From IMG/VR virus record IMGVR_UViG_3300050821_005389, positions 1-64,000 of that record: DNA of 64,000 bases; one strand, given 5' to 3'. The notes below the pieces were generated by a model. The model made no database searches, was not told the DNA's origin, and saw only the letters and a list, made by a program, of their open reading frames with translations. Shown here piece by piece: positions 21,712-25,431 of this stretch; position 1 is the stretch's first letter; every line of letters starts with the position of its first letter. The translations under genes and the position numbers were made by a program. Source of the stretch: a virus.

Positions 21712-23055
21712 ATGGCAGACCAACCTGTAGTTGCAGTTCCATCTACACCTACGCCTTTGACTTTCGCAGATATTAAGAAAGCCGATCGCGACCAGATACA
21801 TGATTTTATGAAGAATCGCCGGCCCGAATTTGAAGAAGCGATCCGAGCAGAGAACGAGAGATTAGCTGGTTTAATCGACGCTGAAAACGAAGCTTATAAA
21901 AAAGAACAGGAAGTTAAAGCTGAACACGAAGCTAGACTAGTAGAAGAGGCTAATGAAGCAGCGAAATCTCCTGAACAGAAAGCGGAAGAAGCAGCCGCAC
22001 TTGCAGCCGTCGAGGCCGAGAGAGTCGTACAAGAAAAAGCAGCCGCCGACGAAGCCGCTCGAATAGAAGCAGAAAAAGTCGCACAGGCCGAAGAGGAACG
22101 TAAAGATTTAGAAGAGAAGCAGCGGTTGGCAGAAGAAGCCGCCAAACCAAAGCAAAAGATTGTCCGCGAGTACCAAGTAAAAGACGAGAAGGGCAATCCT
22201 ATCGGACGGCCTACACATCTCGAAGCCGATACTTGGGAAGAGATGGCGGAGAAGATGGAAGCCGCTCATGCGAACGCCGTAAGATTTGCGGAGCGCATGA
22301 AACGTCGGGCAGAGTTGAAGCCAACGTTTAGTCCGCCTGAACCAAAAATTGAAGTACTAGATGAACCAGAAATTTTGGCTATCCAGAAGGATTTGGAGTC
22401 AAAAGACGAACTGGTAGTCGCTAAGGCGAAAGCGGCTTTGGAATTAAATGCCGCTCGTCGAGATCGTTTAGAACTTCGTAAACGAGAAGATTTCGTCCGA
22501 GGTCAGGCAGTCAGTCTGACTTTTCGCGACCAGCATCCAGAGTTTAATGCCTGTGAAGCAAATTCTAAAGTTCTTAGCCAGTATATTCGAGACAATCAAC
22601 TCGAGTGGACTTTAGACAATCTTGAAATTGCTTACGCGGCAACGGAATCACAATTGGCGCCGAGAACGGTAGAGATTCCTTCTCGGACTATTGCAGTATC
22701 AGAGCCAGTCGCAGTTCCGGTTGTACAAGAGATTAAGCAGGAACCGCCGGTGACTAATACACCGGTGGCTGCACCAGTTGTGGCACAGCCGCCCGCTTCG
22801 GCAGCGGCAGTTGCACCAACTCCGGTCGATCCACCAGCGCCAACACCTAATGTCGCGGCGCAGGAACGGAAGACACCGGCCGCGGGTATTGAGCCCGGCA
22901 CGCTCCACGGAGCGCGACCAACCGGGCCAGTAGCAAGTAAACCCACCGGTCTAACAAAACAAGACATAGCAAAAATGCCGAGAGATGAATATCGAAAGAG
23001 AATGAGAGACCCCGGATTTGTCCGGATGGTTAACGCTCTCTTCGCGGCTAAGTAA
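21712..23055 (+). CDS. Capsid scaffolding protein (putative)
   Basis: Glu/Ala coiled-coil plus Pro-rich linker plus C-terminal DIAKMPRDEY helix; directly upstream of the capsid gene. Confidence 0.7.
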   Translation: MADQPVVAVPSTPTPLTFADIKKADRDQIHDFMKNRRPEFEEAIRAENERLAGLIDAENEAYKKEQEVKAEHEARLVEEANEAAKSPEQKAEEAAALAAVEAERVVQEKAAADEAARIEAEKVAQAEEERKDLEEKQRLAEEAAKPKQKIVREYQVKDEKGNPIGRPTHLEADTWEEMAEKMEAAHANAVRFAERMKRRAELKPTFSPPEPKIEVLDEPEILAIQKDLESKDELVVAKAKAALELNAARRDRLELRKREDFVRGQAVSLTFRDQHPEFNACEANSKVLSQYIRDNQLEWTLDNLEIAYAATESQLAPRTVEIPSRTIAVSEPVAVPVVQEIKQEPPVTNTPVAAPVVAQPPASAAAVAPTPVDPPAPTPNVAAQERKTPAAGIEPGTLHGARPTGPVASKPTGLTKQDIAKMPRDEYRKRMRDPGFVRMVNALFAAK

Positions 23056-23086
23056 TGTCTTGACCCTAGTTTTTAGAGGTTAGTCT

Positions 23087-24763
23087 ATGGCAGGACCGAA
23101 TCCAGCAGCACAGAACGTAGGAAATATTCTTACGGCTCAAAGTATTTTGTTCAAATCGGACTCCTAACAGCGCGATCTGTTAGTAGACAATTCTCTCTTA
23201 TTGGCTTGAACTCCCGAGCGGACAACAAGGCGGAAGTCGAAAGACACCGTGAACGACTAAGCGAGAGAAGACCCACAATAATCGGGTCATACGATAGTCT
23301 GCTCTCATAAGACAACAATTATGAGAAGTTAGCAGAAATGACTAACTCGTTATCAACAGATAACGTAACAAATAGGTGATAAGGAATTGATCCCTAACTT
23401 GAAGGGAGAAACTGACGCGTTTGTTACTGTTGCAGAACGCCGAGTTCAACCTTTGAACATGGGTATCAATCGTACGTTTTTCCAGTACAATACGTTGGGT
23501 GCAGATCTTGCACAATCAGCGGACGGTACTGTCGGTTCACCGGAACTAATTTCCCAGATTTCAGCGCCCGCGCAAGTCGGAGAATGGAACAACTACTCGA
23601 ATTTTTCCGCCTTCGTCGTGGCGTCTGCAATCGACGATCTCGTTCCTAACTCAGCGGTCGAACTTGGCTATCAATGCGGCCAGTCGATTTCTGAATTGTA
23701 CAGCGCAGTAGCGGATTCCGCATCTGGCGTCGACGCTAACGTCAACCAGTCAGGTTTGCTTTCTTCGCCGTATACGCTTGATCTCGGTACATACCGAGAG
23801 CTTAAGCAGCAATTGGTTTCCCACAACATTCTCGCGTGCAAGCGCGGGAAGTATTTGGGCGTAGTTAGCTCAAATGTTTTGGGCGATATTTACAATGCGA
23901 CAACGGTTAACAACTCCATTATCGACTTCCTGAAGTACGGAATGCAGGAGAAGTTCGATAAGATGGCGGGTTCCGATCAGAAGGCAGAAATCGAATTGCC
24001 TGGTACCAATATCGTGATCCGTCAGACTCCTTTTGTCACTACTACCGCGAATTATAAGTCTGGTACGTCTACAGCGTATCGCTCGTATGTTTTCGGTAAT
24101 TACGCGATGATTGGAGTTTGGTTGGAAGTGCCGGGTGACACCGATCTTGACGAAGGCGATTGGAGAACAATCGATTGCCGCGTTGTGACGGATGCACCGG
24201 CGACATCGTTTGACCCCACGGCTAAAAGTTGGCCCCTCGCAGCGTAATCTGATGAGGAGAATCGATTCTAATTGAACTGGAAAACTTCTAATCGAAGTTG
24301 ACAGCGCGGAAGTCGAAAGACACCGTTAACGAGCAAACGAATCGACAGCCGAAAGGCTGAAGTGGTGCTCTGAACATCGTAAGTGATTACGAGAAGCTAG
24401 CAGAAATGACTAGCTCGTTATCAAAAGATAACGTAACAAATTTGACAATTGGGGCGTGGTGTTCGTATCGATTCCATTTACAAAGTTTGGTGGAATTAAA
24501 ATTTCCTCTGATTGACTCGAAAGGTGAGATTCCCAACGAGGCGCAAGCGAAAGCAGCGTGAGAGACTAAGCGAGGAAAGGTAATCGAGAGATTATCATTC
24601 AATAGTCCGAACACTAGTTAACATGAAGCTAGTGAAGTTGACAGAAATGATCAACTCTTATCGAAAGATAAAGTAACAAATGCAAACCGTAACGTTGCCC
24701 CCGGCCACTGGATTGAATACCCAACGTATTCGTTTCATTGACTCGGTTCCGGCAATTCAGTAG
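23087..24763 (+). CDS. Major capsid protein, spliced: exons 23087-23151, 23377-24223, 24445-24477, 24683-24763 (341 aa)
   Basis: GAGGT RBS before ATG 23087. The joined exons give an uninterrupted frame MAGPNPAAQ...SILF/DKELIPNLK...FDPTA/TIGAWCSYRFH/QTVTLPP...VPAIQ*. Position after scaffold. Confidence 0.85.
23152..23376 (+). ncRNA. Group I intron 1 (225 nt, no ORF)
   Basis: Exon ends in U, intron ends in G; P3 TTCTCTC/GAGAGAA; P7 GACTA(23255)/TAGTC(23295). Confidence 0.85.
24224..24444 (+). ncRNA. Group I intron 2 (221 nt, no ORF)
   Basis: P1 GGCT/GGCC with U.G pair; P3 TCGATTC/GAATCGA; P7 GAGCA/TGCTC; terminal G. Confidence 0.85.
24478..24682 (+). ncRNA. Group I intron 3 (205 nt, no ORF)
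   Basis: P1 TTCCAT/GTGGAA with U.G pair; P10 GTTTG/CAAAC; P3 TTTCCTC/GAGGAAA; P7 GACTA/TAGTC; terminal G. Confidence 0.88.
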
Positions 24764-24766
24764 TAT

Positions 24767-24795
24767 TTGACACAATAGCAATATTGTGATACTAT
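24767..24795 (+). promoter_or_regulatory. sigma70-like promoter for the downstream endonuclease
   Basis: TTGACA-N17-TACTAT with extended TG. Confidence 0.7.
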
Positions 24796-24796
24796 A

Positions 24797-24853
24797 TAAG
24801 ATTGAGGGGTGTGCCCTATACACATCCCTCATCTTAACTCTTGTAGGGAGAGT
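24797..24853 (+). promoter_or_regulatory. Kissing-loop leader, copy 5
   Basis: TGAGGGGTGTG-[CCCTATA]-CACATCCCTCA ... ACTCT-[TGTAGGG]-AGAGT. Confidence 0.85.
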
Positions 24854-24855
24854 AA

Positions 24856-25431
24856 ATGACAAAGGTTGAAAAACGCAAGAAAGCCACTTCCAAAATGAGG
24901 AAGTGGAGAAAGAAAAATAAACAGCGTAATTTAGAAAACGGGCGCCGGTGGCGAAAAGATAACGTAGAAAAAGCAAGAGCGAAGAATAGAAAACATTATT
25001 GGAATAATCGGGAAGATATGCTCGCTAGAAATAAAGCTTACTATCCTGAATATTACGCAAAGAATGATATCAAAAGTAAACGACGGCTACGTCAACACGG
25101 TGTTACGCAAGAGTGGTTAGACGCAAAGATGTTGGAACAAGACGGCAAATGTGCTCTTTGTAAACAGCCGTTTACCGAAACACCGCACATCGATCATAAC
25201 CATATTTGTTGTCAATCGCGAAGGAATTGTGGAACGTGTCAACGCGGTTTGTTGTGTAAAGATTGCAATCTCGGACTCGGAAGATTTAAAGACAATACTC
25301 AAACTTTAGAAAACGCCATTCAATATCTTCGAAGGTATAATAATGAGTTGGTCAGTCAACCCCCAATACAAACCGCTGGAAGCACCCTGGAAAGAAACGC
25401 ACAACCAGAAGGTCACTCAGCAATCAATTAA
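24856..25431 (+). CDS. Endonuclease VII-like free-standing homing endonuclease
   Basis: HGVT...QDGKCALCK...HIDHNH.CC...C..CQRGLLC..CN.GLG.FKD. Confidence 0.85.
   Translation: MTKVEKRKKATSKMRKWRKKNKQRNLENGRRWRKDNVEKARAKNRKHYWNNREDMLARNKAYYPEYYAKNDIKSKRRLRQHGVTQEWLDAKMLEQDGKCALCKQPFTETPHIDHNHICCQSRRNCGTCQRGLLCKDCNLGLGRFKDNTQTLENAIQYLRRYNNELVSQPPIQTAGSTLERNAQPEGHSAIN

Follow-up and report, generated by a model that had tools for sequence, protein, structure and literature searches.

Evidence that three compact, related group I introns are spliced from the predicted major capsid gene of an uncultured soil phage

Phage genes carrying several group I introns around very short internal exons have a reported precedent: Landthaler and Shub reportedly described, in 1999, orf142 of the Staphylococcus phage Twort as a gene whose three group I introns self-splice and whose internal exons are very short. 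The Twort introns possess the extra P7.1/P7.2 elements of subgroup IA2. Here we describe the capsid gene at positions 23087-24763 (plus strand) of a 64,000-nucleotide (nt) stretch of virus DNA, positions 1 to 64,000 of IMG/VR record IMGVR_UViG_3300050821_005389 (hereafter the window). The source is an uncultured soil phage represented by a single 117,043-bp virus contig, of which the window is the first 64 kb. The gene consists of four exons of 65, 847, 33 and 81 nt separated by three related insertions, which we read as group I introns. It differs from the Twort case in both gene and intron subgroup, and no P7.1/P7.2-like elements are present between P3' and P8.

Other described systems resemble this locus in other respects. 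According to the passages of Yutin et al. 2021 (PMC7886860) that concern introns, a major capsid gene of the Zeta group of crAss-like phages is split into five fragments by group I introns. The two cases are alike in that several group I introns lie in a phage capsid gene, that the sequences are metagenomic, and that gene callers see only fragments. In that account the Zeta introns, from Bacteroidetes gut phages, were recognised by the endonuclease/maturase domains that they encode, whereas the present gene holds three introns of 205-225 nt without an open reading frame (ORF-less), belongs to a soil phage and has its junctions represented in RNA contigs. Jug jumbo phages, in the sections of PMC12880540 devoted to their introns, harbor 2513 introns in essential genes, with a mean length of about 206 nt, together with many stand-alone endonucleases, and metatranscriptomes supported 37 of the 76 introns tested. 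The likeness lies in compact ORF-less introns in essential genes, stand-alone homing endonuclease genes nearby and metatranscriptome-backed splicing. As presented in those sections, however, the Jug introns, found with subtype covariance models, occupy terL, nrdD and polymerase genes of gut phages of 360-402 kb, whereas those described here occupy the capsid gene of a 117-kb soil phage and are missed by the general model of Rfam. Capsid-gene group I introns are also described, in the relevant part of PMC3706429, for mycobacteriophage LittleE and lactococcal phage Tuc2009; these are single introns, that of LittleE measuring 820 bp and containing an endonuclease ORF, whereas here there are three, all ORF-less. 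Limited keyword searches of the literature returned no description of the present intron family or of its link to the endonuclease genes in the slot behind the capsid gene.

The interruptions were delimited with a boundary search in which every possible join was compared with a homolog. The features are listed below with the insertions assigned as we read them; P0003 is an uninterrupted homolog of 341 amino acids (aa), and X1 (DNA) and X2 to X4 (RNA) are public soil sequencing runs.

Capsid exon 1, 23087..23151, plus strand: 65 nt, ATG at 23087, last base T23151; tblastn match to P0003 residues 1-25; an RNA contig joins 23151 to 23377.
Intron 1, 23152..23376, plus strand: group I, 225 nt, ORF-less, terminal G23376; P3 at 23191-23197/23263-23269; P7 at 23253-23259/23295-23300; nhmmer E 8e-45; covariance model R1, 181 bits; joint unambiguous in RNA run X2 and absent from the spanning contig of DNA run X1.
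Capsid exon 2, 23377..24223, plus strand: 847 nt; 93% identical to P0003 residues 23-304; unbroken in X2 and X3 RNA contigs.
Intron 2, 24224..24444, plus strand: group I, 221 nt, ORF-less; family member with the greatest divergence (P7 GAGCA/TGCTC); P3 at 24262-24268/24339-24345; P7 at 24329-24335/24366-24371; nhmmer E 3.7e-30; covariance model, 141.7 bits; joint 24223 to 24445 in RNA runs X2, X3 and X4.
Capsid exon 3, 24445..24477, plus strand: 33-nt micro-exon encoding TIGAWCSYRFH; 100% match to P0003 residues 305-315; present in spliced RNA contigs.
Intron 3, 24478..24682, plus strand: group I, 205 nt, no P2; internal guide sequence at 24490-24497 pairs with exon ATTCCAT (P1, 8 bp); GTTTG at 24485-24489 pairs with CAAAC of the 3' exon (P10); P7 at 24562-24568/24603-24608; nhmmer E 1.5e-37; RF00028, 22.4 bits (threshold 50); RNA overhangs of only 18 and 9 nt in X3.
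Capsid exon 4, 24683..24763, plus strand: 81 nt, stop codon counted; residues 316-341 of P0003 match at 100%.

The joined exons, the 33-nt exon included, amount to 1026 nt, that is, 341 codons and a stop. The spliced product is identical to P0003 at 317 of 341 positions, with no gaps, and P0003 maps onto the window in four collinear pieces (residues 1-25 at 23087-23161, 23-304 at 23378-24223, 305-315 at 24445-24477 and 316-341 at 24683-24760). Uninterrupted homologs of 340-345 aa align straight over all three junctions, and the predicted junctions SILF/DKEL, PTA/TIG and RFH/QTV are exactly those found in the intron-less homologs. The boundary sequences are tttgtt|CAAATC...AATAGG|tgataa, acggct|AAAAGT...AATTTG|acaatt and ttccat|TTACAA...CAAATG|caaacc, so that an exon-final T and an insertion-final G, the latter at 23376, 24444 and 24682, are possible for all three. 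The 3' parts that the insertions share correspond to direct-repeat families D1-D3, 83-96% identical between copies. Inside the introns the longest stop-free stretch is 42-55 codons, and the mechanical ORF list of the capsid region holds just one ORF, of 286 aa, at 23387..24247. The first-pass annotation, made from the letters of the window alone, had described exactly these elements, namely, three ORF-less insertions of 225, 221 and 205 nt with an exon U before and a G at the end of each, a shared 3' block, one 341-aa frame once they are removed, and a truncated 286-aa piece in the ORF track, and we recovered all of them. The straight alignment of intron-less homologs agrees with the junctions that it had predicted.

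The insertions have relatives. We gathered 80 related capsid loci (L001-L080) from IMG/VR, and a boundary of the exon-T and intron-G type is possible in 37 of the 41 insertions found in the window and these loci; the four exceptions (L007, L073, the first insertion of L078, and L079) are cases in which two introns or a poor alignment confused the search. Altogether 34 short insertions, representing 29 distinct sequences, were aligned as one family with MAFFT. The 5' part of the family layout consists of P3 (7 bp), a conserved J3/4 (AUUGA), P4, an A-rich J4/5 and a tiny P5; the middle comprises P6 and P6a with a GNRA-type loop, the element G(A/G)(C/A)GACUAA, P3' and P8; and the 3' part holds AUGC(G/A)AUAGUC, P9, P9.1 and P9.2, followed by a GUAACAAA tail before the final G. 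The loop of P9.1, 9 nt in length, is almost invariant (CAGAAAUGA). With this P5 and with no P5abc-like stabiliser, the introns are very compact.

The pairings of this layout covary. Across the 42 pairs of P3, P4, P5, P6, P6a, P7, P8, P9 and P9.1, standard pairs fill 97.5% of 1205 cells in the 29 introns, and in 35 of the 42 pairs both sides have changed. The 500 shuffles never reached any of five measures, and slid partners were paired in only 34.6-42.2%. When the identical pairs were written nested, without the pseudoknot, 80% were paired and P3 and P7 failed, which indicates that the P3/P7 pseudoknot is needed. P7 reads GACUA/UAGUC in 28 introns and GAGCA/UGCUC in intron 2 of the window, while its G-C and A-U pairs are invariant in all 29 rows. 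A sixth P7 pair behind a one-base bulge covaries without exception: 20 rows have A(C)..U and the other 9 have G(A)..C. A bulged P7 beside an invariant G-C pair is, we presume, the guanosine-pocket arrangement of well-studied introns such as that of Tetrahymena. At the 5' splice site of intron 3, the guide GTGGAATT (24490-24497) pairs with the exon end AATTCCAT in an 8-bp P1 with the terminal U on G, and the GTTTG that precedes the guide forms a 5-bp P10 with CAAAC, the first five bases of exon 4. Over the whole family the mean P1 at an intron's own site, capped at 6, is 4.8 bp, versus 3.0 for foreign exon ends.

The cores of the three window introns are each nearer to introns of other phages than to one another. 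Introns 1 and 2 nevertheless share a block from P9.1 to the end (23328-23376 and 24396-24444) that is 90% identical. This identity, set against the divergent cores, suggests exchange between copies in one genome.

Evidence for splicing comes from public soil sequencing runs, of which eleven contain part of the stretch and six are metatranscriptomes. One DNA run (X1) and three RNA runs from three studies (X2, X3 and X4) were compared with the window; stretches left uncovered in single runs were not counted as evidence. An X2 contig of 1247 nt reads 23000-23151, 23377-24223 and 24445-24477 with 0 other letters, so that the excision of introns 1 and 2 matches the predicted sites exactly. The joint of 23151 to 23377 occurs in one RNA run (X2), and that of 24223 to 24445 in three (X2, X3 and X4). 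The first of these has no positional freedom and selects the U|...G boundary over an alternative one base to the right that would give the same protein. In the DNA run X1 one contig spans 23000-24183 without a break, a further piece lies within intron 2, and joints are absent. Intron 3 has less support: one X3 contig runs 9 letters past 24477 with CAAACCGTA, the start of exon 4, and a second joins 24460-24477, an 18-letter side, to 24683-24800. In addition, the database protein P0002 (311 aa, from a cluster flagged as the window's own) corresponds to exon 1 and exon 2 followed by read-through into intron 2 (…DPTAKSWPLAA); with intron 1 out and intron 2 kept, it derives either from the assembly of a partly spliced RNA or from a variant of the DNA.

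The interrupted gene is, by structural modelling and context, predicted to encode an HK97-fold major capsid protein. It follows genes for the large terminase (phrog_38) and the portal (PF23899, phrog_1216), and its product shares 37% identity with the 'major head protein' of Tunturiibacter phage Tunturi_3, a protein whose gene is uninterrupted and lies in the same gene order. The capsid protein itself gave no direct Pfam or PHROG match, and a PDB sequence search with P0003 returned nothing meaningful (best E 0.25); PF25209 (Phage_capsid_4) is matched by 20 of the 66 members of the wider protein family, and the neighbours of the capsid protein in the ESM Atlas are capsid clusters. An AlphaFold2 model of P0003, built with a diverse alignment from a profile search (248 proteins, E<=1e-3), reached a predicted local distance difference test score (pLDDT) of 85.1. 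Its best Foldseek matches are the capsids of N4 (9e99), Moo19, Pan3 (9vye) and GP4 (8h89), at E about 5e-13 and TMq 0.61-0.70. An earlier model made from 60 close homologs had a pLDDT of 37.4 and was discarded. Profile and tblastn searches found one locus of this capsid family in the 117,043-bp genome, so that no fallback capsid gene of the family is available to the phage.

A family profile searched with nhmmer over the 117,043-bp genome found exactly three places (E 8e-45, 1.5e-37 and 3.7e-30; next best E 5.4), which places the three insertions far beyond chance, and our own covariance model (213 positions, 37 pairs) found only the same three copies. Because of the exon U and terminal G, the covarying P3/P7 core, the bulged P7 and the junctions in RNA contigs, we conclude that the insertions are spliced group I introns of one family lying in the phage's only major capsid gene. 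The anatomy of the gene, the covarying pairs, the intact reading frame and the exact joints in RNA contigs are directly observed, and we put the probability of this reading at roughly 0.93. The original assignments, as group I introns and as a major capsid gene, are thus upheld, the latter by the HK97-fold model, the Foldseek capsid matches and the gene order.

Several observations weigh against this conclusion. All of the RNA evidence consists of assembled contigs, not reads, and an RNA library may hold DNA. The overhangs across intron 3, of 18 and 9 nt in a single run, fall under the 31-letter criterion for bridging. A 181-nt X2 RNA contig, 24503-24683, lies inside intron 3 save for a single terminal base, with which exon 4 begins; pre-mRNA, excised intron or DNA carry-over could each account for it. 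The first-pass annotation had also claimed P1, P3 and P7 pairings, and while P3 and P7 are borne out by covariation, P1 is convincing for intron 3 only. In intron 2 it is just 4 bp (GGCC with GGCU), and 2 of 16 exon ends of other sites pair equally well with the 5' region of that intron. The situation in intron 1 is ambiguous, with a weak P1 of 3 bp (GUU/GAC) at the homologous guide position and an alternative of 5 bp (UUGUU/GACAA) elsewhere, just before P3. In a simple P1 search, 10 of the 29 introns did no better at their own site than with at least 8 of 16 foreign exon ends; because such a search for contiguous helices fails to discriminate many P2-bearing introns, P1 was dropped as family-wide evidence. 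Rfam at gathering thresholds gave 0 matches over the whole window, and at E<=10 over 1.9 kb it returned noise only (snoRNA, lncRNA, SIB), with RF00028 missing. Introns 1 and 2, each searched alone, had no RF00028 match at E<=10. For intron 3 alone RF00028 was the top Rfam match (22.4 bits, E 6.8e-4), a score far under the 50-bit gathering threshold; the alignment covers P1, P3, P4-P5 and the P7 5' element GAGACUAA, and its 3' half is misaligned. Since the structural features of group I introns are present, we read the Rfam result as the insensitivity of one broad model. A hammerhead considered in intron 2 (a CUGAUGAG...GAAA stretch) was rejected, being absent from the other introns and without Rfam support.

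Our results are consistent with the following course of splicing. The late transcript would fold with P1, with its U.G wobble, at the 5' splice site and a P4-P6 scaffold, and then with the P3-P7 pseudoknot, whose bulged P7 would form the guanosine pocket, P8 and the P9-P9.1-P9.2 tail. Each intron would leave by two transesterifications, the first using free guanosine and the last involving the intron's final G, and the product would be an mRNA for the 341-aa HK97-fold capsid protein. Splicing, as we infer, would be self-catalysed and GTP-dependent.

The family is widespread among the relatives of this phage. It is present in 36 of the 80 related capsid loci, whereas the other 44 have no insertion of the family; at least two profile hits occur in 9 loci, with three in L078 and L080, and the pair of 5' hits in L050 stems from a single endonuclease-bearing intron. 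Given these frequencies, the multi-intron capsid genes already published (PMC7886860) and what the cited parts of PMC12880540 and PMC3706429 describe, namely, ORF-less introns of ~206 nt in essential phage genes and introns in capsid genes, the first-pass description of the arrangement as 'unusual' was overstated. The 37 resolved capsid introns are spread over 13 sites. Codons 20-29 contain four of these sites and codons 286-326 the other nine, and conservation of the capsid gene is highest in these two segments. The intron 3 site is the commonest (11 introns), and the sites of introns 1 and 2 of the window are unique in the sample. Two C-terminal introns with exons of ~60-90 nt between them are seen at L007:2226-2678, L010:2824-3292 and L031:3385-3891 (profile-hit coordinates); as these loci also show them, short internal exons are common in the clade. 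N-terminal sites in L027:1735-2307, L050:255-845, L073:1721-2392 and L078:1563-2303 carry intron versions of 776-1057 nt with the same core and an in-frame 190-246-aa HNH-type ORF in the 5' part. L004 retains just an 88-aa remnant.

A wider search of IMG/VR with a pattern of three conserved motifs matched at least 120 stretches. Among the matches listed, 119 new loci contain 187 profile copies, 47 adjoining this capsid family and 140 elsewhere, and representatives of the flanking ORF clusters match portal proteins (phrog_1216/332, phrog_12), other major head families (phrog_267, phrog_1357) and GIY-YIG, HNH and LAGLIDADG-like endonucleases. In at least 11 loci the portal homolog aligns only from residue 83, 100 or 103, right after one or two introns. 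In a more distant clade (L161:831-1232; L178, L193, L127 and L131), the 5' end of the portal gene is split by two tandem introns of the family, which in L161 lie 15 nt apart (profile-hit coordinates).

The capsid gene is followed by a variable slot, which we defined as the interval from the capsid stop codon to the next conserved gene (24764-25342 in the window) and classified in 67 loci and the window. In the window it contains the following gene, a candidate trans-acting homing endonuclease.

Endonuclease VII-type (HNH-like) gene, 24856..25431, plus strand: free-standing, just after the capsid gene; PF02945 E 2.1e-16; phrog_2914 E 5.4e-24; slot occupancy tracks introns.

The slot behaves as a swap site, its contents differing among the 68 classified loci as follows.

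Endonuclease VII-type gene, as in the window: 27 loci.
GIY-YIG gene (PF01541 and NUMOD3): 18 loci.
Other genes: 5 loci.
Empty: 18 loci.

Introns occur in 33 of the 50 loci with an occupied slot versus 0 of the 18 with an empty one (Fisher p = 4e-7), and on the capsid tree the empty slots are scattered, with 14 changes. Two results pull the other way. When kinship was controlled, 8 independent pairs remained, of which about 5.5 pointed the same way and 0 the opposite (sign test, median p 0.06), so that the association between slot endonuclease and introns is only suggestive once relatedness is taken into account. The endonuclease VII family alone showed no association with C-terminal introns (12/25 vs 14/42, p = 0.30); the association is seen only if any slot gene is counted.

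At the DNA level, cuts made by the free-standing endonuclease encoded downstream might allow the introns to spread and persist, whether through co-conversion or through trans ('collaborative') homing; now and then a new site would be reached by a jump that requires a match to no more than a few guide nucleotides. The slot data fit either process, both of which are described, with a free-standing endonuclease, in a review (PMC3984707), although endonuclease-driven spread of these introns is something that we can only infer. The setting resembles a known one in which an ORF-less intron of a conserved gene has a free-standing endonuclease gene directly beside it; here, however, the slot gene is of the endonuclease VII or the GIY-YIG type depending on the relative, and insertion sites are many instead of one. 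A broader picture is possible, in which one compact ORF-less family colonised, across uncultured soil phages, at least 13 positions of a single capsid gene as well as portal and other head genes and persists only beside a free-standing endonuclease, the introns acting as cleavage-immunity patches spread by trans homing at many sites, with jumps needing a guide match of only 3-5 nt (as in intron 1). We regard this picture as tentative, with the odds leaning against it.

It could be supposed that the insertions are unspliced DNA that inactivates the gene, and that the joined contigs derive from intron-less variants or from DNA in the libraries. The dependence on contigs and the possible presence of DNA in RNA libraries would allow this, and intron-less alleles do exist in the clade, 44 of the 80 loci having no intron hit. 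However, the joined contigs match the exons of the window with 0 other letters over about 1,030 nt, whereas the closest intron-less IMG/VR locus is only 83-85% identical at the protein level and the closest protein, P0003, 93%. The joints are present in three RNA runs and in none of the contigs of the DNA run that best covers the stretch, a covarying ribozyme core has been kept, unlike in dead DNA, and the genome has no second capsid gene of the family to fall back on. We therefore consider unspliced insertions very improbable. A milder departure from our conclusion is that these are true group I introns whose removal in the cell is not efficient self-splicing but requires, above all for intron 1, a protein helper such as a host or phage RNA chaperone or a maturase. 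The short P1 of introns 1 (3-5 bp) and 2, the compactness of the introns with their tiny P5 and lack of a P5abc-like stabiliser, and the resemblance of P0002 to the product of a partly spliced RNA all agree with such a need. Nothing maturase-like was seen in the window, however, and the introns are ORF-less; moreover, the conserved three-helix 3' tail (P9, P9.1 and P9.2) could provide stabilising tertiary contacts. Efficient self-splicing is known from compact group I introns, the Azoarcus intron among them. We judge that dependence on a helper is unlikely, at perhaps one chance in several, and continue to favour self-catalysed splicing.

The movement of the introns leaves room for a different route from homing, in which the introns would reach new sites chiefly by inserting into RNA through reverse splicing, with reverse transcription and recombination as the later steps. 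A single gene offers 13 insertion sites among its 37 resolved introns, and the family also occurs in portal and other head genes. The guides match their own sites where P1 is long (GTGGAATT, GTCCACC and GGGAATA), and the guide region of intron 1 is shared with a codon-326 intron of another phage, whose exon end is GGTGTT as compared with TTTGTT in the window. In the review cited above (PMC3984707), as far as the sections on intron movement go, related introns at different sites are considered the best circumstantial evidence for this route. No reverse transcriptase was seen, although no search for one was made, and in the 18 loci with no endonuclease gene next to the capsid gene introns are missing throughout. 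As none of those empty-slot loci carries an intron, a DNA-level route fits better than reverse splicing, which is improbable as the main way to new sites. For the jumps between sites it nonetheless stands as a live alternative beside endonuclease-driven spread.

In practical terms, the phage's only capsid gene gets called as a 286-aa fragment, and because the standard Rfam model misses all three introns at threshold, annotation pipelines will mis-annotate this gene and many of its relatives in soil viromes. The finding leaves knowledge of this kind of mobile element unchanged. Its interest lies in the RNA support, in the size and target range of the family, and in the association with endonucleases. 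It provides an environmental, RNA-supported case in which the late gene with the highest expression contains several group I introns, and a large family that targets head-assembly genes and co-occurs with free-standing endonucleases offers material for the question of how ORF-less introns spread. Should the many-site trans-homing picture be true, the family would be a natural, RNA-verified system for studying the movement of ORF-less introns.

A weak match to SIB_RNA (20.5 bits) was rejected as spurious, being caused by a promoter-like pair and a hairpin in the gap that separates the endonuclease VII gene from the capsid stop codon. This segment, 24767-24839, holds a sigma-70-like TTGACA...GATACT followed by the GC-rich hairpin (GAGGGGTGTG...CACATCCCTC), and it may comprise the endonuclease gene's own promoter together with a terminator or regulator.

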